Source of the DNA: Plasmodiophora brassicae
Lineage: Eukaryota
Direction of reading: 5' to 3'
DNA length: 64,000 nt
NCBI GenBank assembly: GCA_036867785.1
Contig: CP145422.1
Location: 682,001-746,000 of the forward strand
Positions 6,318 through 38,663 of this stretch are shown piece by piece. Position numbers and translations under genes: made by a program. Every line of letters begins with the position of its first letter. The first letter of the stretch is position 1. The notes beneath the pieces are model-generated. The model was not told the DNA's origin. It did no database searches and saw only the letters and a program-made list of their open reading frames with translations.

Positions 6318-9300
6318 TTAGAGGACGATGACAGCGGCAGCGAACGCCAGGACGATGGCCGCCGCGACGTTGAGCGCCGGTGCGCCACTGCCCTTCTTCA
6401 GCGTCATCTTCTCGAACGCCGACGCGTTGTATCGGGTCGCGTTGATCTGCGACGGCAGCCCGCACGAGTAATCGACGACGAGGTGGTAGTCGCGCGCAGG
6501 CGCCTTCGCGGTCGCGTCGCCGTACGTCGTCGTCGCATTGGTGCCGCAGGACGGCGTGCCGAACGTGGCCACGGTCGCGTTCACGTCGCAACGCTCTCGG
6601 CGCAGGCACTGGTCCATCAGCACCGGCAACGGGTCGACGTGGCAGTCGCCCTGCTTGAACGGGCCCTTGCAGGACGACGGGTTCCCGAAGCTCCCCTGCG
6701 CGAACCCGGTGATGACCTGGCCCTTCGGGCAGACGATCTCGCGGTGGCTCTTGGACGAGAAGCACCGCTCCTTGCCTTCGTCGACGTACACGCAGTCGTA
6801 GTCGGCCAGGACGCGGAAGTTGTTCGCATCGCTGGCCGCGTCGCAGGGTATGCCGAACAGCTTCGGGTTCGCCTCGACGTAGCACGATTCGCGCCCGGCA
6901 CACATGCGCTCCAGCGTCTCCTTCACGTTCAGGCTGCACGTCGTGTTGGACGACCACGGCTTGGAGCACGACCCCTTCTGCAGGCCGAACGTCGCCCGGC
7001 GCACGCGCTTGATGACGTGCTTGGCGGGGCACACCATCGCCTTGCCGCCGTTGTGGACGATGTTCTCGTAGCACTTGGCGACCACGGGTCTGGCCGGCTC
7101 GCGGCTGGGCGCGTAGCTGTGCTCCTGCTCCTGCCCGGCGTGCTTGGCCTTGTCACAGACGTAGTTGACGAGCAGGCGGTACCGTCCATCACGGGACGGG
7201 CAGGGCGCGCCGAAGAACGCCGGGTCGGCCGACACCTGGCACGACGTCTTGCCGAGGCAGGCCCCGCTGATCTTGTCGACGACGTCGCGGTGGCAGGCCG
7301 GGTTCGCTTGCCACAGCTTCGAGTGGAAGCAGGTGCCGTGCGGCAGGCCGAACGTCGACGACGTGAACGCGACGATCACGTCGCCGTCGTCGCAGCCCAG
7401 CGTCTGGAAGTGGTCGGCCGTCTCGCTCTCGAAGCACATGTGCCTGCGCCCGTGGGTCGTCGTCGTCGTACCCGACTGTTGCTGCTGCTCGTGCTGCTCG
7501 TGCTGCTGCTGGTGCTGCGACTTGGTCGTCGTAACGCCACCCCGCTTCGGCAGGAACGCATGCGGACGCGACTTGGTCGTCGTCGTCGGCGTCGTCGGCG
7601 TCGTAACGTCAACGTCGTCGTCGCAGTCCTCGACAGCGGGAATCGGCGCTGTCGTGATCCGCTGGAACATGGGCGTCGTCGTGAAGTTCGGCAGGAACAG
7701 GGGCGGCATGTCGGTCGTCGGCGCCGCGTCGCTCCCGTTCGTTGTGTTCGGCGCCAGAGGCGCCGTCGTCGCTGTCGTTGGCGCCACCAGGTCGCCGGAC
7801 GTGTTCGTCGTTGGCGGCGGCGTTGTCCCGTTGACGATCGTGACAGACAGCGTCGCGTTCGGGTGCTTCGGCGCGGTCGTGTTCACCATCGTCGGTGCCA
7901 CCAGGTCACCCGACGTCGTGTTCGGCGACGTTGTCGGCGCCGTCGTTGTCGCGTTCGACTTTGGCGCGGTTGGCGCGGTCGTGTTCGTCCCGTTCGGCGC
8001 GATCGACGTCGGGGCGACCATGTCACCAGACGGCATCGGCGTTGTCGTGTTCGTCTTGTTCGGCGCGATCGACGTCGGGGCAACCATGTCACCGGACGGC
8101 ATCGGCGTTGTCGTGTTCGTCCTGTTCGGCGCGATCGACGTCGGGGCAACCACGTCACCGGACGGCTTTGGCGTCGTCGTGTTCGTCGGGGCCGTCGTCG
8201 TTGTCGCGTTCGGCGACGTCGTCGGGGAGACCGATGCCGGTGCGACAACGTTGCCAGAGGGGGCCGGCGTCGGCGCCGTCGAGTTGGGCGACGTCGTCGG
8301 TGCGGTCGACGCCGGTGCGGCCAGGTCGGCAGACGGCGCCGGCGTGCTCGTGTTCGTCGTGGTGGTCGGCGGCGGCGTTGTCATCGACGTCGGCCCGGAC
8401 AGGTCGCCCAGCGGCGCCGTCGTCGGGTGGATGCACTGATAGTCGACACGGTCGACAGGAACGCTCGTCAGGACGCACATCGGTTGCCCGTTGCAGAGAC
8501 GCTGGACGGTGTCCAGCGCGGCGGTCGGCGCGGCCAGCGACCCTTCGTACGCGTTGACGATGTGCAGCGTCGATCCTTCCTCGCACCGGATCACCTCGGG
8601 CATCGCGGGCGCCGGCGCCGTCGTGAAGACGGGCACCTGCAGGCGCACGTTCGTCGAGTTGAACGGGTGCCGGGCCGTCGGCCCGCTCAGGTCACCGGGC
8701 GCCGTCGTGTACGTGGCGTTAGCGGGCGCCGTCGTCGGGAACAGGACAGGCGACGCGGTCCCACCAGGCATTGTCGTCGGGGCCGTCGTCCCGTTGACCA
8801 GGTCGATGGGCGTCGACGTGAAGACCATCGGACGGGAGGACTGGCCAGGCATTGTCGTCGGGGCCGTCGTCCCGTTGACCAGATCGATGGGCGTCGACGT
8901 GAAGACCATCGAATTGGAGACTTGGCCAGGCATTGTCGTCGGGGCCGTCGTCCCGTTGACCATGTCGATGGGCGTCGACGTGAAGACCTGACCCGGCATT
9001 GTCGTCGGTGCCGTTGTCGAGTTCTCTGGCGTCGACACATTAATCGGCATCGTCGTGGGCGCCGTCGTCGTGTTCAACGCGATATCCTCTGTTGTGGGCA
9101 GATTGCCAGGCGCCATCGTCGGCGCCGTCGTCTCGTTGACCATGTCGATGGGCGTCGACGTGAAGACCGTCGGCGCCGTTGTCCCGTTGACCATGTCGAT
9201 GGGCGTTGACGTGAAGACCGTTGGCGAGGTGAACGACCCGGGCGCCGTCGTCTTGTTGTGATGTTTGTGCTTCTTGTGCGGATGCGTTGTCATCGGCAAC

Positions 9301-10508
9301 GTGGCGTTGTCCGGTGCCGTCGTCATCATGGTCCCCGGCATGGACATGTCGCCAGACGGGAACTGGATCGGCGTCGGCGCCTTGGTCGGGTACTCGAAGA
9401 TAACCTCTTCGACGATGGGCGCCATCGGCATCGCCGTCGGCATCGTAGTGGACGCCGAACCCGAGCCGTACAGGCCCGCCCCAGTTACAGACAGCGGCAC
9501 GTCGACCGGTGCCATCGTCAGCTCAGGCTGGATGAAAAGAGCAGGCTGAATGGGCATCACAGGCTGTTGGAAGGCCACAGGCTGCTGAACGGCGACCGGG
9601 GCGGGCGAAGGCGGAGGCGGTGGCACCGTCGCGAACACTTCCGGGAACGGTGGCCACTGGATGTTGAAGTCGCTCGAAGGAGACGGCGTTGGCGCTGAGC
9701 CGGGCGTCGACGATGACCCACCGTTGTTGCCGCTGCTGGGCGCTGGCGACGACGAATTGCCCGACGGGCTCGGCGCTGGCGAGGAACTGCTCGACGGCGA
9801 CGACCCGCTCGACGGCGACGACCCGCTCGTCGGCGTCGGGGAATTGCCCGAAGGCGAGGACGTGCTCGACGAAGAGCCGCCCGAAGGCGACGATGATGAC
9901 TGGCTGCCCGGGCTGGCAGTCGAGACAGCCGTTGTCGGTGATGGTTCCGTCGTGGGCATGTTGATGTTGATCGTCGTCCCGCTGCTGCTGCTGCTGCTGC
10001 CGCTTGAAGTCGAGGAAGAGGACGAGGAAGACGATGATCCAGAGTCGGAGCTCGACCCGCTGCTCTTCTTGTGCTTGGGTTTCTTCTTGTGGTGCTTCTT
10101 CGGCTTCTTCTTGTGGTGCTTCTTCTGCGACTTGCCGTACCGGGCGGGTTTCGCGTTGCCGTACAGGCCCTTGTCGTTGCCGTTCACCTGGTACGGCTTG
10201 TTGTCGTTGAAGCGGAAGGCGGGCGGGTTCTGGAACTCGGGCGCCAGCGTCATCGGCGCCGTGGTCGGCGCTGGCGTTGGTGCCGGCGTCGGGGCGGGCG
10301 TCGGCGCCGGTGTCGGAGCTGGGGTTGGTGCTGGAGTCGGCGCCGGGGTTGGCCTTTCGCCATAGATTGGTAGGATCAGTGGCGCGTTCGCTAGCTTGGC
10401 GGCGACCTCCTTGGCGTACTCGGCTCCCTCACCGAGGGCGCGAACGTGGCCGGCCAGGACGAGAAGCGCCATGGGAATGAGGATCGAGACGGACCTGGCG
10501 GTCATCAT
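6318..10508 (-). CDS. Secreted, probably GPI-anchored Pro/Thr/Ser-rich mucin-like protein with SUEL (galactose/rhamnose-binding) lectin domains
   Basis: Intronless 1396 aa. Signal peptide, (PTPA)n, KKHHKKKP repeats and a TTAP-rich stalk. Three Cys-patterned SUEL-like domains at about 7436-6462 (FG.P.G.C...C.GK.SC.V.A....FG.PC) plus a degenerate one at about 8590-8432. Hydrophobic C-terminus. Confidence 0.85.
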   Translation of the reverse strand: MMTARSVSILIPMALLVLAGHVRALGEGAEYAKEVAAKLANAPLILPIYGERPTPAPTPAPTPAPTPAPTPAPTPAPTPAPTTAPMTLAPEFQNPPAFRFNDNKPYQVNGNDKGLYGNAKPARYGKSQKKHHKKKPKKHHKKKPKHKKSSGSSSDSGSSSSSSSSSTSSGSSSSSSGTTININMPTTEPSPTTAVSTASPGSQSSSSPSGGSSSSTSSPSGNSPTPTSGSSPSSGSSPSSSSSPAPSPSGNSSSPAPSSGNNGGSSSTPGSAPTPSPSSDFNIQWPPFPEVFATVPPPPPSPAPVAVQQPVAFQQPVMPIQPALFIQPELTMAPVDVPLSVTGAGLYGSGSASTTMPTAMPMAPIVEEVIFEYPTKAPTPIQFPSGDMSMPGTMMTTAPDNATLPMTTHPHKKHKHHNKTTAPGSFTSPTVFTSTPIDMVNGTTAPTVFTSTPIDMVNETTAPTMAPGNLPTTEDIALNTTTAPTTMPINVSTPENSTTAPTTMPGQVFTSTPIDMVNGTTAPTTMPGQVSNSMVFTSTPIDLVNGTTAPTTMPGQSSRPMVFTSTPIDLVNGTTAPTTMPGGTASPVLFPTTAPANATYTTAPGDLSGPTARHPFNSTNVRLQVPVFTTAPAPAMPEVIRCEEGSTLHIVNAYEGSLAAPTAALDTVQRLCNGQPMCVLTSVPVDRVDYQCIHPTTAPLGDLSGPTSMTTPPPTTTTNTSTPAPSADLAAPASTAPTTSPNSTAPTPAPSGNVVAPASVSPTTSPNATTTTAPTNTTTPKPSGDVVAPTSIAPNRTNTTTPMPSGDMVAPTSIAPNKTNTTTPMPSGDMVAPTSIAPNGTNTTAPTAPKSNATTTAPTTSPNTTSGDLVAPTMVNTTAPKHPNATLSVTIVNGTTPPPTTNTSGDLVAPTTATTAPLAPNTTNGSDAAPTTDMPPLFLPNFTTTPMFQRITTAPIPAVEDCDDDVDVTTPTTPTTTTKSRPHAFLPKRGGVTTTKSQHQQQHEQHEQQQQSGTTTTTHGRRHMCFESETADHFQTLGCDDGDVIVAFTSSTFGLPHGTCFHSKLWQANPACHRDVVDKISGACLGKTSCQVSADPAFFGAPCPSRDGRYRLLVNYVCDKAKHAGQEQEHSYAPSREPARPVVAKCYENIVHNGGKAMVCPAKHVIKRVRRATFGLQKGSCSKPWSSNTTCSLNVKETLERMCAGRESCYVEANPKLFGIPCDAASDANNFRVLADYDCVYVDEGKERCFSSKSHREIVCPKGQVITGFAQGSFGNPSSCKGPFKQGDCHVDPLPVLMDQCLRRERCDVNATVATFGTPSCGTNATTTYGDATAKAPARDYHLVVDYSCGLPSQINATRYNASAFEKMTLKKGSGAPALNVAAAIVLAFAAAVIVL
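7975..8170 (-). repeat. 66-nt coding tandem repeat PSGD(M/V)VAPTSIAPNxTNTTTPM x3
   Basis: Three near-identical ttcggcgcgatcgacgtcgggg units 66 nt apart. Confidence 0.85.
8760..9220 (-). repeat. Coding repeats VFTSTPID(M/L)VNGTTAPT(TMPG) x5
   Basis: Near-identical gtcgatgggcgtcgacgtgaagacc units recur. Confidence 0.85.
10262..10350 (-). repeat. 12-nt coding tandem repeat (PTPA about x7)
   Basis: Translation PTPAPTPAPTPA... with synonymously diverged DNA units. Confidence 0.85.
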
Positions 10509-29446: not shown

Positions 29447-30215
29447 GATTGATCAGTGGTTGACCGCTGCGACGACCTTGAGCAAGCAGACGATGACGAC
29501 GACGACGAGCAGGCGACTTGAGTTGTGGTTGGCGGCGGCCGCGGACTCACCCAGTCAGAGGCGTAGGCCTCCCTCAAAATAGCGTGACTCGTATGCCCTG
29601 GGCACGCGTCCCCTCCCCGATTTATCATCGACCCTCGAATCGCCATTCTATTTACGTCGTATTGTCAGGCGGCGCCCACCCCCGCTGGCGCTGGTCTGAC
29701 GTCCCGCGGCTTCTGCCACGAAGTCGAGACCGACGGATCCATTTAGGTATCCGCGAGGCTGCTTCTGATGCTGGCAGCCCTACCCGGCCGTTCCACAGGC
29801 CCAGAAGAATGCCTTGCGTCAGAGCTTTAGGAGGGAAAGAGGTACGGGGAGCCCCTTGTCAAGGCGCAGTAGGATACAACAGGCTGCCGTCTACGTTACT
29901 GGTGAGATCTCGACGCCCCTACCGTAGACTCTACGTTACAAGAGCCCCGACAGGCGACAACGATTGTTCGGCCAGCTCTACCGTTCTCCTGCGCTACTAG
30001 CCCAAGATGGTGAGCATGTCGACGCGGACTGAACGTTCGTTTTCAGGAAGGAGGTAATCGAGGCAAACCGTTTATCAATCATCATCGGATCACTTGCCCA
30101 TCGGTCCAACATATTAATTTTGGAGAACAGCCATGATCCGGCGTTCTTGCTAAATTGCTCCTTGCTGTAGTAAATAGACCAAGTGCCCTGTAACTTATCT
30201 CGGAGGGGAAAAAAG

Positions 30216-30287
30216 AGCCGCAAGCGGGACTCGAACCCGCAACTTCTGGTTCCGAAGACCAGCACGCTGCCATTGCGTCATTGCAGC
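30216..30287 (-). tRNA. tRNA-Arg (anticodon UCG), copy 1
   Basis: Cloverleaf: GCTGCAA/TTGCGGC acceptor, CTGGT-CTTCGGA-ACCAG anticodon arm, GGTTCGAGTCC T arm. A T6 Pol III terminator follows. Confidence 0.95.
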
Positions 30288-30544
30288 AGACCAGACGTAA
30301 GTGGCCGTGTCGAGTACTGGTAGTCGCTCCCGAAATTTTCCTGTGTGTGAACCGTACAGTAGCACCGACGAAACGATATCTTCATCACGAATTGGACGAT
30401 CAGCGGCGGGGCATGGGGAAGCACCAGGTGACAGGTGACTCCTAATGACAGGTTTCCGGTTGGCGGGCTACCAGTGAGGAAACGTAAAAGGAACATATCA
30501 CATATGGCATCCCCTTTAGCCAGCGCAAGGGCCAAGAAAAAATG

Positions 30545-30616
30545 AGCCGCAAGCGGGACTCGAACCCGCAACTTCTGGTTCCGAAGACCAGCACGCTGCC
30601 ATTGCGTCATTGCAGC
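30545..30616 (-). tRNA. tRNA-Arg (anticodon UCG), copy 2
   Basis: Identical 72-nt sequence to copy 1, with its own T6 terminator. Confidence 0.95.
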
Positions 30617-33333: not shown

Positions 33334-34110
33334 CTAGTGGTCTTCCTCGAACAATCCGGGACAGTGGGCCAACAGGTCATCGTTATCCCTGTACTTGTAC
33401 CCACAGTACAGGCAGTAGCTGTAGACGACACGCAGGTACGATAAGATCTCGTCGAGCTTGTCCTCGACTTCAGTGAGTCTCTCGGCAGGAGGGATGACGC
33501 GACGTCGGAGAGCGATAGGCTCATGCTGCACGGATTCATAGCCGAATGCATCTCGTTCTGGGTCATAGAACGCGTCCGCCGATGACGGGCGTTGGTCGGC
33601 GAGCCACATGAAATTAACAAAGAGGCCCGCCTCCTCATCCAGCTGCCTGCAGACGCGTTGGGCCGTCGCCAGCTTCCCTTCGACGCGCCGGACAGCGTAC
33701 TGGTGGCTCATTGCGCCTCGAAACGCATCGTCTTGCGCCTGTTTCATACGATGAGCGAGCCGCAGCCGAATCTCTGCCACCTGGGCGGCATGCCGTTTCA
33801 GTCCAAGCCCCGACCTAGATCCTATCGAACGAGTCAGAGCAGCGTCTGAAATGATAAGAAGAGCCGAAATACCTGGACTCGTGTCAATGGCAATAGGCTC
33901 TTGGACGCCAGAACCGGTTTTGCCCAATCCCTGTCCGGGCGTATATCCCATGCGGAGCAGCAACTGGTGCCCGCGGTTGCTGGCCGGGATCGGCGTCGCC
34001 AGGCCCTGGTCCAACCTGCCACGAATCGACATCGGCTCCGTCCTCGGCCGCTCCGGCTCCACCTCGAACGTCATCGCCATGTAGTCGCCCGCGTCATCGG
34101 ACGGCGCCAT
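33334..34110 (-). CDS. GPATCH11: G-patch and DUF4187 protein GPATCH11/CCDC75
   Basis: SNRGHQLLLRMGYTPGQGLGK..GVQEPI and C-terminal YLRVVYSYCLYCGYKY...CPGLFEEDH. Confidence 0.9.
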   Translation of the reverse strand: MAPSDDAGDYMAMTFEVEPERPRTEPMSIRGRLDQGLATPIPASNRGHQLLLRMGYTPGQGLGKTGSGVQEPIAIDTSPGISALLIISDAALTRSIGSRSGLGLKRHAAQVAEIRLRLAHRMKQAQDDAFRGAMSHQYAVRRVEGKLATAQRVCRQLDEEAGLFVNFMWLADQRPSSADAFYDPERDAFGYESVQHEPIALRRRVIPPAERLTEVEDKLDEILSYLRVVYSYCLYCGYKYRDNDDLLAHCPGLFEEDH

Positions 34111-34395
34111 CGCCGGTCGATTCGACGCAAATGGCGCACATAATTCCGTAACGGGGTAGCAATGGCGAACGAACGACAGACGTCCGTTAGCACCAGCGCG
34201 GAGTGATGGGCAGGGGATTGGGTCAGCTCAACCTGGAAACGTACCGCTAAGTAGCTGCTGCTAACGATGTGTTGAACGGCGCGCGGGGGGGCCGTGCATG
34301 ACGTCGGGCAGTGCTGCCAAAATAATATGGTTGGCCACGTCGGACTGTGGATGGAGAAAGTCCGAGGCAGTTGTTGTAATTGCGTGTCGCATGAC

Positions 34396-37300
34396 ATGAC
34401 GGCGCACGCGGTGAACGACGGCGCGTCCGACGAGCGGGAGCTGCGCCTGTCCAGCATACTGGCGAGCCGGGCGACGGCGGCCGCGACCGGCCGAGAACGC
34501 GCTGCCTCCGGCAGCGAACGGTCATGGTGCGCCGTCTGCGAATCGCTGTTTGACGAGGACGACATGTCGCGGCGCACGTGTACGGGGCTGTGCAGGCGAT
34601 CGTTTCACTCCTTCTGCATATCGAGCGATCCCGGAATCGATCACGCACCGTTCGTCTGCCGGCAGTGCGTTGCCCAAGAGGTATGCCCGTGTTGTTTAAC
34701 GTTACAGCTTAACTGATGTCCATCCAGCACGCCTGTTTTCAGTGTGGAGAAACGGCACCGGATTCCGAATTGCGCCACTGTTCGGTGCGTTCCTGTGCAA
34801 AGTTCTTCCATCAGGCGTGCTGGAAGGAGGCTGGCGGTGGGACGAAGCCCGTTTGCGGACGTCACCATTGCCAGCGATGCGTTCGTCGCGGCCTGCCTGT
34901 GGAAGACCGTAACCCGGACCCCGTTCATCGTTGCATACGCTGTCCAAAGTCGTGGGACCTGAAATGTATTCCGAAGGGATCGTTTCGCCTGGACTTCCGT
35001 CCGAGTACCTTCCTGATATGCCCGGACCATACGCCCTGGCCGACGTCTGCTCGCCTTTCCGCGGATATCGGGCGGCGAGGAGGGCCGTCGAGCGATGTCA
35101 GCAGTGATGAGGACAGTGCATCTGCCACTGGGGAGTTTATTCCATTTGACCTGCCTACCGAATGGACATCTGATGCGGGTGGAACGGCTGTTGACGCTGA
35201 CGAACTGCCGCAAGCGCCTGTACTGCAGCCAGCAGAATCGACATCATCGAAATCGCGTAGGCTTCGCAGTTCGAAACAGGCTCCGGACGCTGCTCCAGCG
35301 AACGACGCCGTTGAGCCAGACGCTGTTAACGGTGAAGACGAGGACCGCATGGAAGAAGAGTCTGAAGACGTTCGAAAAGGTGAAACACCCGAAGGTGTTA
35401 AAGGTGAGCTGGTGTCAGAGCCGACACGACGAGGGCGCGGTCATCACCGCAAACACTCGGGCGCGTTTTCGAAGAAGGCGAACGCGAAAGTTCTGTCTCA
35501 GTGTCACTATTGCGACCGCGAGTTCCGGTACTCCTATTCTCGCAATCAGCAGTATGTTTCGTCAGTGTGTGGCGTTCCGTACCCTTTTCTGACACCGTGA
35601 TGTGATAGTGAGCGCGACGAACACCCTGAGCAATGTCCACTGCAATGCCCGAACTGTCGCGCAGGGTTCCACTCTCAAAGACCACTGGAGAAGCACCTGG
35701 CTCATGGATGCGGGCTCTCCCAAGCGGAGCAGACGCCGTCACAGCCTCTGTCTCCCACCACCCAGCGCTCTGCGGACGATTCGTCGGTGCCCAAGCTGCG
35801 ACCACGCAGGAGCGTGGTTTACGATTCCGCACCGATCGGCGCCATCTGCTGCGATTATTGCCCGAAGACGTTTCATCAAATGTCGAACCTCAAGACGCAT
35901 GAACGTCAGTGCCATCCAGAACAGTGCCCCTTGCATTGTGCTGGGTGCGGCGCGCCGTTTCATTCGAACGTGCCCTTGGAGCGTCACACCGCCGAGTGCG
36001 AGGCGTTCCAGAGGTTGTTGGCGGTCGCGAGCGACGATCACCAGTCCGCCGCTTCTGACGTTGACATGATCGACAAGATGGAGGACGTCGACGACGTGGC
36101 AGATGATGAATCTATGAGCGAAGGCGAGCGCCGCCCGTCTAATCGGTTGTCGCATGGATCCAGTACCGGTCGTCGTTCGAGCTGGGCGACAGGATCTCAG
36201 GCAAGCTCGGGTCAGTACCCTTGCTCTCTTTGCGATCGGGTGTTTACCCAGGTGTCGGCGATTAATGCGCATGAACGTAATGCCCATCCTGAAATATGCC
36301 CTCTCCACTGCATGTACTGCGACAAACCATTCCACACCGTCCCGCCTCTTGAACGCCATCAGATGTCGTGCCCGGATCGCAACGAAGCGAAAGAGACTCC
36401 GCCGCCTGCACAGCCTGCTGACATGCCGATTCGGATTCATCTGCCAGGCTTCAAGACGAACCCCATGTATCGTGAGGCTGGCCAGTTCCGGTGCAGTTTC
36501 TGCTCGACTTCCTTTGATCGTCGGTTTGCGCTGACCACTCACGAGCGTGAAGTTCATCCCGATCTGGTCCCTTTCCGCTGTCCGATTTGCGGGTCAGGGT
36601 TCTCCAGTCGTACCGCCTTGGAATCGCATGCGAATTTCTGCATGGACCATACCTGTGAAGAGTGCGGTCGCGATTTCTTTTCACGACATGCTCTGGAGAA
36701 GCATGCGGCTGACAATGGGCACAACGCGGGTCCTCCTATGGAACCAATCGTTTGCCCACATTGCTCCAAGACGTTCAAGTGGCAACGATCTCTTGACCAT
36801 CACCTTGTTCGTGTTCACAAGGAGACTCCTGGTGGCCAGTCCTCTGGCAACCAGCAGTTGTTCTACAGGCCTCCGACACCAACGTCAACGCTGTTGAACT
36901 TCGTCCCCCGGAAACGTCTTCGCAACGCTGACGATGGGTCGATGTCATCCTCATCGTCATCGTCTTCTGCCGAGTACGACGATGCCTACAAGGCGATCGA
37001 CGAGAACGTTTATGTTTGCAGCAAACCGGCCCCGACCGAGCCGCCGCCTCTTTGCGAATGTTCTGGTCCAGGTCCTCTCTGTGTGGACGATTCTTGCATC
37101 AACGTGCGTGCCCGCATCGAGTGTGACGTAAGCGCACATGAGTGTGCCAATCAACGCTTTCAGCGGAAGGAGTTTTCTCGAAATGCGGATTCTCTCTCTG
37201 TTGTCCCCGACGCGTCTGATGGATCTCCATGCCTGACCACGACAACCGACATACCTTCCGGATCCCTCATCGTTGAGTTCGTTGGAGAAGTCCTGGACGC

Positions 37301-38663
37301 TGCCGCTCGGCGAACGCGCTCGTCCCCCAGGCCTATCATGCTACGTTTGACACAGCATCTGACCGTTGATGCCACCCGGTTCGGCAACGTCAGCCGATTT
37401 ATTCAGCATTGTCGTTCGCATCCGCCGCCATCAAATGGGGGCGCGCACGCTGTGACTGACGGTCCTTCGATAACCGGACCGAACTGTTCGACGACGGTCT
37501 GGTCGGCCAACGGCGTTCTTCACATCGGCGTGTTCGCCGCACGCGACATTGCCGCCGGCTCCAAACTGACTGTCGACATGGGGCAATCCGGTCGTGTTGC
37601 CTACGACAACGTTCTTCGGAAGAACAATCATCGGGACTCATCGTCGGGTACTCCATCTGGGTCAGTTGGTCTGGGCGGCCTCCCTATCCCTAGAGCCATG
37701 CCTAGCCCTTTAAACATCTACGATCGTGAACGGCTGCCTTCTCAGATGCAGTTCGATGCCGTTGTCTCATATCAGCTGGACAAAGGGGTCGACCCGCACG
37801 CTGCAGAGGCGAAGATCGCTGGCGTCTACCTGATCAGAAACTGGCGAAGATCGTTCGCCGAATTTGCTGCAAACTCCGCCAAGCACTTCAGGATAGGGCA
37901 GACCAAGGACATTGCTGACAATCTGGCCGCGTACGAGAAGCTGAACAAGCAGCGGGTGCGAAGGCCGCCTCCTGCTGCTGTCGAAGCCCTGCGCACTGCA
38001 CCGAGTACGTCTCCGATCCGGATGGGCAGAGTGCCAGACGCGCGTGTCGTGATGCCGCCGGTATCGCTTCTTCCAACTCCGCGTCAGCTGGGCGAAGGCG
38101 ACTCTTCTTCGGATGAATCCAGCTTCGATGCGGCTGCGAGCGCTGCGATTGCCGAGGAGGTCGACATTGCGCTTGATTTTGAGCTCGACGAAGACGACGG
38201 TTCGTCGGTCGTCAATCTGTCTTCGTCCAAGCGGGATCCGCAACGAGATCGGGATTCGTCCAGGCATCGGACGCCACCTCCAAGGTCATCGCGGGGCCCA
38301 TCGACGAAGGGCACTCCTGGATCGTCCTCAACGCAACCAGATGAATCGTCGTCTTCCGCGTCCCGACGTGCCGTCATCGGCGGCATTGTTGAACCAGTCA
38401 ACAACGGCGACGAATCACTACTCGGAAGGCGGTCTGCATCTGAAGTGGTTCAGTCGACCGAAGATGACGCGAACGACTGTGACGCCTCAAGCTCATCGTC
38501 GCCGCCCCCAGGTCGGGAAAACGGTGCAATTCCAATGGCCATCGACAGGTTCACCTGCGAACAATGCCACAAGTCGTTCGAACGGCTCGGCGAACTCCGA
38601 AGCCATGTCGAGCATCGTTGCAGACGGTCGGGTGCAGCTGCGGCCATCGCTGGTGTTGTCTAG
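34396..38663 (+). CDS. PHD fingers, C2H2/C2HC zinc-finger array and AWS-SET-like protein (degenerate SET)
   Basis: NSD-type PHD cluster, about 11 zinc fingers, AWS (CEC...CVDDSCIN...EC...CANQRFQR), and SET with RFIQHC and KLTVDM. Introns near 34681-34727 and 35552-35608. Confidence 0.85.

Follow-up and report, generated by a model that had tools for sequence, protein, structure and literature searches.

Can a histone methyltransferase lose its catalytic residues and still be kept as a folded chromatin protein? The question is raised by a gene in a 64,000-nucleotide stretch of the genome of Plasmodiophora brassicae, the clubroot parasite, which is obligate in roots (assembly GCA_036867785.1, contig CP145422.1, positions 682,001 to 746,000; the whole stretch is called the window here). 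The gene (plus strand, 34396-38663; three exons, 1388 codons, one terminal stop) encodes an NSD-like PHD cluster, an array of zinc fingers and an AWS-SET domain from which most active-site residues have been lost. Judging from the residues replaced, its product is very probably catalytically inactive. We also consider it probable, with some reservation, that this transcribed, lineage-restricted pseudo-methyltransferase arose by duplication of an NSD-type gene and acts as a non-catalytic chromatin adaptor whose fingers mostly bind protein.

The protein comprises, in order, PHD, PHD_NSD and PHDvar_NSD fingers, an acidic linker, ten zinc fingers, the AWS-SET domain, a cysteine-free stretch, a helical segment, a low-complexity tail rich in Ser, Asp and Pro, and an eleventh zinc finger. 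Pfam matches exceeded the cut-off for PHD_NSD (PF22908), PHDvar_NSD (PF23004), zf-C2H2 and SET, and fell below it for PHD and AWS; the SET score was 41 bits, versus 93 in the paralogue at 56693 (P0153, described below). Neither PWWP (PF00855) nor C5HCH (PF17982) gave a Pfam match on the database protein of this gene (P0001) or on P0153. There was likewise no Pfam match to the PR domain (PF21549), the domain present being an AWS-SET domain C-terminal to the ten fingers. The parts of the gene are as follows.

34396-34680, plus strand: exon 1, with the start ATG at 34396 and the first PHD finger at about 34528-34668
34681-34727, plus strand: intron 1, 47 nucleotides, GT-AG, phase 0, at the alignment column of the paralogue's intron 57011-57105
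34728-35551, plus strand: exon 2, with PHD_NSD at about 34728-34829, PHDvar_NSD at about 34869-35033, the acidic linker and the start of finger 1
35552-35608, plus strand: intron 2, 57 nucleotides, GT-AG, within finger 1
35609-38663, plus strand: exon 3, with fingers, AWS-SET, helical segment, tail and stop, continuous in transcript contigs
36990-37580, plus strand: AWS-SET domain, with motif I at about 37224-37232, motif III at 37395-37412 and motif IV at 37563-37580; fold apparently kept, active-site positions lost
37413-37472, plus strand: 20-residue insertion in motif III, present in transcript contigs and of lower model confidence
37581-37690, plus strand: post-SET slot, without cysteines and predicted with low confidence
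37692-37907, plus strand: helical segment; across the proteins and the genome searched, only the paralogue shares it

To describe the losses, the SET domain was aligned with the paralogue and with 149 homologues (of 150 listed, one having no alignable domain), and residues were numbered as in NSD2 through PDB sequence alignments of the paralogue. A sequence-only reading of the locus had reported RFIQHC in motif III, KLTVDM in motif IV and a missing post-SET; this was borne out at 37395 and 37563 and by the absence of all three post-SET cysteines, which are 96-98% conserved among the homologues. The losses extend beyond that description. Both glycines of motif I are gone, Y1092 is replaced by Phe and Y1118 by Ile, one AWS cysteine is lost, the I-SET helix is shortened, and the 20-residue insertion in motif III displaces the equivalent of C1144. 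In motifs III and IV, N1141 has become Gln, E1174 Lys, F1177 Val and Y1179 Met, so that three of the four residues named for the lysine cage of NSD2 are changed (Y1092, F1177 and Y1179, with L1120 kept). At the 37 columns conserved in at least 90% of sequences, the zinc-finger paralogue keeps 23 residues and the sibling 36; across 138 near-complete homologues the median is 36 and the minimum 26. On this comparison the loss is not a matter of chance, because 23 lies below the lowest value among the homologues. It is also unevenly placed: of the 12 positions that belong to the cofactor site, the lysine channel or the post-SET, only two are kept and ten lost, versus 21 kept and four lost among the 25 scaffold positions.

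Published work indicates what such changes would entail. The side chain of the motif III Asn touches the cofactor in all SET structures reviewed (PMC3178901). The lysine cage of NSD2 is formed by Y1092, F1177, Y1179 and L1120, and the equivalent of Y1092 is essential in NSD1 (PMC10244704). MLL5, which lacks the XGXG, NH and Tyr motifs, does not bind S-adenosylmethionine (SAM) (PMC5094779), and SET-24 is likewise without activity (PMC12886896).

Despite the loss of the active site, the SET fold appears to be kept. An AlphaFold2 model of the AWS-SET region, built on a 73-row alignment, has a predicted local distance difference test score (pLDDT) of about 90 over the core and lower values over the motif III insertion; pLDDT falls below 50 for model residues 204-250, the post-SET slot, and is 59-76 for the helical segment. 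The model superimposes on ASH1L with a Z-score of 23.3 and a root-mean-square deviation of 1.6 over 173 residues, on NSD3 with a Z-score of 22.9, and on NSD1/2 with Z-scores of about 22; these alignments stop just past motif IV. By sequence, the PDB matches of the domain are ASH1L, NSD1 and SETD2.

The probable origin of the gene lies 18 kb away in the same window.

56693-59275, plus strand: NSD-type paralogue P0153, 730 residues, with a PHD cluster, Myb/SANT, AWS-SET-post-SET with all motifs, and the helical segment

The best PDB matches of this sibling are NSD3, NSD2 and NSD1 (E 1.6e-58 to 3e-56), versus 5e-45 for SETD2 and 1e-43 for ASH1L. The zinc-finger gene is most likely a duplicate of this intact gene, because the two share a phase-0 intron at one alignment column of the PHD cluster, the PHD cluster itself and a private C-terminal segment. 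Among 181 fetched proteins the sibling gave the best match to the PHD cluster (score 224 versus 210 for the next). The helical segment scored 94 against the sibling (shuffle maximum 50, next protein 53), and its matches in the P. brassicae genome lie in two places only, the two paralogues. These results favour the earlier proposal of a pseudo-methyltransferase on an H3K36 (histone H3 lysine 36), NSD-type scaffold that is paralogous to the 56693 gene. The duplication is judged to be old, because a single 33-bp match is left of the DNA similarity between the paralogues, and because no other gene pair suggesting a segmental duplication was found between the two neighbourhoods. In SET trees the degenerate domain forms a long branch, beside P0150 (74 rows, quick tree) or P0007 (34 rows, namely the 74-row set minus 40 rows, with the longest branches among those dropped). 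Its end branch amounts to 3.09 changes per column, versus 1.21 in the sibling, and in an approximately unbiased test pairing with the sibling was no more than not rejected (p=0.357).

As an observation on the sibling itself, the P0153 model leaves out about 54 nucleotides in frame (57188-57243) within the second PHD finger, and with them a stretch of His/Cys ligands that the open frame encodes; this gap is possibly a false intron.

Transcript contigs support the gene model. In three runs, each from a different study, the contigs skip both GT-AG introns and no others, and a fourth run, from a fourth study, carries the unspliced form; across these four runs no alternative letters or indels are listed relative to the window. 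Because the spliced contigs match the window, RFIQHC and KLTVDM are neither assembly errors nor spliced out in the dominant form. Splicing that would restore NHS, DY and the post-SET was looked for and not seen: the introns lie outside the SET region in the contigs, and the three RNA-like runs show no splice joint within it, contigs being prone to drop rare isoforms. The database entry P0001, annotated by its sources as a C2H2 zinc-finger protein of Plasmodiophora brassicae, corresponds to the product of the window gene with 22 residues added at the N-terminus, translation beginning at an upstream ATG. The first positions of the transcript contigs are 34330, 34378 and 34379, which fits a start at 34396 better than one at the upstream ATG, although contigs cannot fix the start. 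Two further features lie at this end of the gene. A short upstream frame of two codons and a stop (ATG plus one codon) at 34391-34399 overlaps the start ATG at 34396, and a G-patch/DUF4187 gene on the minus strand (33334-34111) is arranged head to head with the zinc-finger gene, the starts being about 285 bp apart, which suggests a shared promoter.

The zinc fingers are arranged as follows.

35502-35711, plus strand: finger pair 1, in which a C2H2 finger is joined to a C2HC finger by a 7-residue linker
35850-35999, plus strand: finger pair 2, whose first finger (finger 3) has the helix residues Q-1, S2, N3 and T6
36222-36371, plus strand: finger pair 3
36492-36818, plus strand: finger pair 4 followed by fingers 9 and 10, the sole run of four closely spaced fingers (7-10)
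38556-38621, plus strand: finger 11, of C2HC type, at the extreme C-terminus

The sequence-only reading had counted about 11 fingers before the AWS-SET domain; the count stands at 11, and the placement does not, since ten lie upstream and the eleventh is C-terminal. Four pairs account for eight of the fingers, and in each of them 7 residues link a C2H2 finger to the C2HC finger that follows. Compared with one another, the pairs show 36-52% identity at the protein level and 44-54% at the DNA level; 40-74 residues separate them. Tandem fingers joined by TGEKP linkers and encoded in a near-identical minisatellite are a feature of PRDM9-type arrays. Here none of the ten inter-finger stretches holds a TGEKP linker, and no near-identical minisatellite was found, the pair units having only the DNA identity given above and no variants being listed in the four runs. 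Four of the ten upstream fingers are of C2HC type, and proline occupies helix position +3 in fingers 2, 4 and 6; the hydrophobic Phe/Leu core is kept in 10 of the 11 fingers. We take this anatomy to argue against a PRDM9-like DNA reader. We also take the helix of finger 3 to be the most DNA-binding-like of the array, and nucleic-acid binding by this finger and by the closely spaced fingers 7-10 is conceivable. In this genome, ordinary C2H2 proteins carry TGE[KR]P linkers. A donor for the finger pair was sought and none accepted: the other 24 genome matches were not this unit, and the 11 loci translated encode TGE[KR]P-linked proteins.

A nearer analogue than PRDM9 would be FOG1, whose nine mixed C2HC/C2H2 fingers recruit proteins and whose PR domain does not bind S-adenosylhomocysteine (PMC4146578). 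The dispersed mixed fingers of FOG1 are cited there, as unpublished, as not binding DNA (PMC4146578).

The following course of events would account for these observations. The zinc-finger gene would have arisen when the 56693 gene, which encodes the parasite's NSD-type H3K36 methyltransferase, was duplicated. Its product would no longer bind SAM productively or methylate lysine, and the folded AWS-SET domain and PHD triplet would have been retained as surfaces for docking to chromatin or to proteins. The slot held by Myb/SANT in the sibling may have been taken by the zinc fingers, which an old internal duplication of a C2H2-C2HC pair could have supplied. Most of the fingers' work would be to bind proteins, with fingers 7-10 possibly touching nucleic acid as well, and the protein as a whole would act on chromatin as a non-catalytic adaptor, much as MLL5/Set3, SET-24 or FOG1 do.

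Several observations weigh against this account. The sibling's margin over the runner-up for the PHD cluster is small, and neither SET tree joins the paralogues or places the degenerate domain reliably. The equivalents of R1138, H1142 and L1120 are kept, and a Tyr-to-Phe change at the Y1092 position also occurs in 13 of the 149 homologues. Because active relatives made up the alignment behind the fold model, the model is biased towards a SET fold. None of the sequencing runs is recorded as RNA, so that their RNA status is a guess, supported by the skipping of introns. Finally, the gene is known from one species, and selection on the dead SET domain is not demonstrable across species.

Four other explanations were weighed. 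That the odd motifs are sequencing artefacts, or that the gene is a dead pseudogene, might be suggested by the fact that P0001 is held by one database cluster with a single member sequence; this idea is largely refuted, and is extremely improbable, given that four runs from four studies match the window without other letters or indels, three of them spliced, and that the reading frame stays open over about 4.1 kb (1387 codons before the stop). A divergent active enzyme, for example one with a non-histone substrate or a post-SET lid supplied by a partner, would be consistent with the survival of R, F, H and PN of motif III, with the conservative nature of Gln for Asn, and with reports that PRDM2, 3, 6, 8, 9 and 16 are active without the usual SET motifs (PMC4146578), the last of which also counts against the adaptor account. 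Such an enzyme is highly unlikely here: the changes jointly affect both SAM anchor points, three tyrosines (the one in motif IV and two others) and the zinc site of the post-SET, and none of the 138 homologues has lost as many conserved columns. The SET domain could instead be a vestige, kept only by lying in the frame of a zinc-finger/PHD factor. Its long end branch, the 20-residue insertion, the short I-SET helix, the lost AWS cysteine and an AWS match below the Pfam cut-off all fit that idea. We nevertheless regard it as very unlikely, because random decay should not have spared the scaffold while DNA similarity fell to one 33-bp match. The difference between active-site and scaffold loss gives Fisher p=1.4e-4 (p=1.7e-3 without the post-SET cysteines), values that are not blind, the residue classes having been drawn after the data were seen, which is a further point to be held against the adaptor account.

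The remaining explanation gives the fingers a larger part: by recognising DNA motifs they would direct the dead SET domain to particular loci, where it would recruit or compete with the sibling and so shape local H3K36 and H3K27 methylation. The Phe/Leu core kept in most fingers, the Q-S-N-T helix of finger 3, the close spacing of fingers 7-10, the Myb/SANT of the sibling in the same slot, an EZH-like SET gene in the genome (at G000:C10, read from its translation) and the private helical segment common to both paralogues would all agree with it. The absence of TGEKP, the C2HC second fingers, the +3 prolines, the distances between pairs and the behaviour reported for the FOG1 fingers speak against it. 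We consider it unlikely, and the PRDM-like targeting proposed by the sequence-only reading is correspondingly weak. A fuller form of the idea, decidedly unlikely, is a protist-built, sequence-targeted dead NSD that recruits or blocks its sibling through the shared segment and so draws borders of H3K36me2 and H3K27me3 at chosen genes; if true, the H3K36 clade would contain an enzyme paired with its own pseudo-enzyme, and a PRDM-like design would exist outside animals. The putatively dead copy and its intact sibling form a natural pair for probing what the NSD scaffold does in the absence of catalysis, which is of interest for mammalian NSD proteins too.

Inactive SET adaptors are already established in the Set3/MLL5, SUVH and PR lineages. 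NSD1/2/3 and MES-4 likewise carry a PHD triplet (PF22908, PF23004) upstream of AWS-SET; unlike them, the zinc-finger paralogue has no detected PWWP or C5HCH and no post-SET, has lost the active site and has 11 added fingers. MLL5/SETD5/Set3/Set4/UpSET and the C. elegans protein SET-24 likewise retain the fold although their XGXG, NH and Tyr motifs have been lost (PMC5094779, PMC12886896); in the NH motif of the P. brassicae protein the His is kept and the Asn lost. A shortened SET-insert helix is also found in this inactive group, and PHD and SET occur together in most of its members (PMC5094779, PMC12886896). Unlike MLL5/Set3, the domain described here has AWS, fingers and matches to ASH1L/NSD/SETD2, and MLL5 retains a post-SET region. 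The presence of AWS, and top sequence and fold matches that are all ASH1L/NSD/SETD2, argue against Set3/MLL5 descent, the trees having held no Set3/MLL5 rows. FOG1/ZFPM1 and PRDM proteins likewise join a degenerate SET-like domain to multiple zinc fingers (PMC4146578). In the metazoan PRDM proteins the PR domain is N-terminal to the fingers (PMC4146578), whereas here NSD PHDs lead and AWS-SET follows the fingers; the likeness to FOG1/PRDM is best read as analogy, not descent.

In Arabidopsis, SUVH2 and SUVH9 are inactive SET paralogues of active enzymes that act as adaptors and are brought to methylated DNA by an SRA domain. They belong to the H3K9 clade, unlike the NSD-scaffold protein described here, and PMC4146578 mentions the inactivity of SUVH9. 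A further parallel is P0150 (ASH1L-type, SET-PHD-BAH), one of the HMMER matches, with an H3K36-clade SET that has decayed in a similar way: it has Phe at Y1092, Met at Y1179 and RQ for NH, and its motif I glycines and post-SET cysteines are gone; its architecture is that of ASH1L, without fingers. With P0150 in view, the zinc-finger gene is not the sole putative pseudo-enzyme of the H3K36 clade. P0150 may resemble nematode LIN-59. In the excerpt of PMC11075575, lin-59 is listed as the ASH1L counterpart and its inactivity is not mentioned. In the literature searched, which left aside supplements and most subscription papers, no NSD-derived inactive SET with zinc fingers was found, nor any description of this gene or of chromatin regulation in P. 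brassicae.

That the architecture might be a widespread family was examined in protein, metagenome and Atlas searches, and no such family was found. A word-index search with the SET region returned P0001 itself and one fungal ASH1L-like match among 8000 scored candidates, and one with the PHD region returned only itself among 13 candidates. HMMER against 1.84 billion representatives gave 1474 matches, none below 1e-30, and none of the 150 listed carried at least two C2H2-like patterns; a search with the sibling gave 32 matches below 1e-40, with zf-C2H2 listed in none. A metagenome scan found six loci, the four translated of which resemble fungal Set2, and the ESM Atlas returned generic SET and C2H2 clusters only. 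No orthologue or protein of the same architecture was found, an absence that is weak, since coverage of other phytomyxid proteomes is uncertain; the finding rests on one species and on sequence.

Among the 25 SET matches in the P. brassicae genome are two more H3K36-clade genes with intact motifs, both on C12, and another that is degenerate, on C9. Because further motif-intact genes exist, H3K36 writing would not depend on the zinc-finger gene; because at least one other H3K36-clade SET of this genome is degenerate, writers may have been converted into adaptors repeatedly in this obligate root parasite. The degenerate SET on C9 (G000:C9, about 629577-629867, minus strand) has RCIRHS for RFINHS and no motif IV tyrosine; it is followed by a glutamine-rich frame of 732 codons, with post-SET-like cysteines seemingly in the next exon. 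A third NSD-type PHD cluster, at G000:C11:271381, lies behind a seemingly bromodomain-like stretch, with no SET match reported nearby. The SET domain at G000:C10:587424-587822 has RLSHS for RFINHS and is possibly of ATXR3/SDG2 type.

Elsewhere in the window, a gene for a WW-MyTH4-FERM protein (59516-61654) directly follows the sibling and has no motor domain in frame. A 79-bp direct repeat (30209-30287 and 30538-30616) is 98.7% identical, its copies lying 329 bp apart. On the minus strand, a frame of 1434 codons (6321-10622) matches SUEL lectin three times and contains internal repeats (about 7944-9219).

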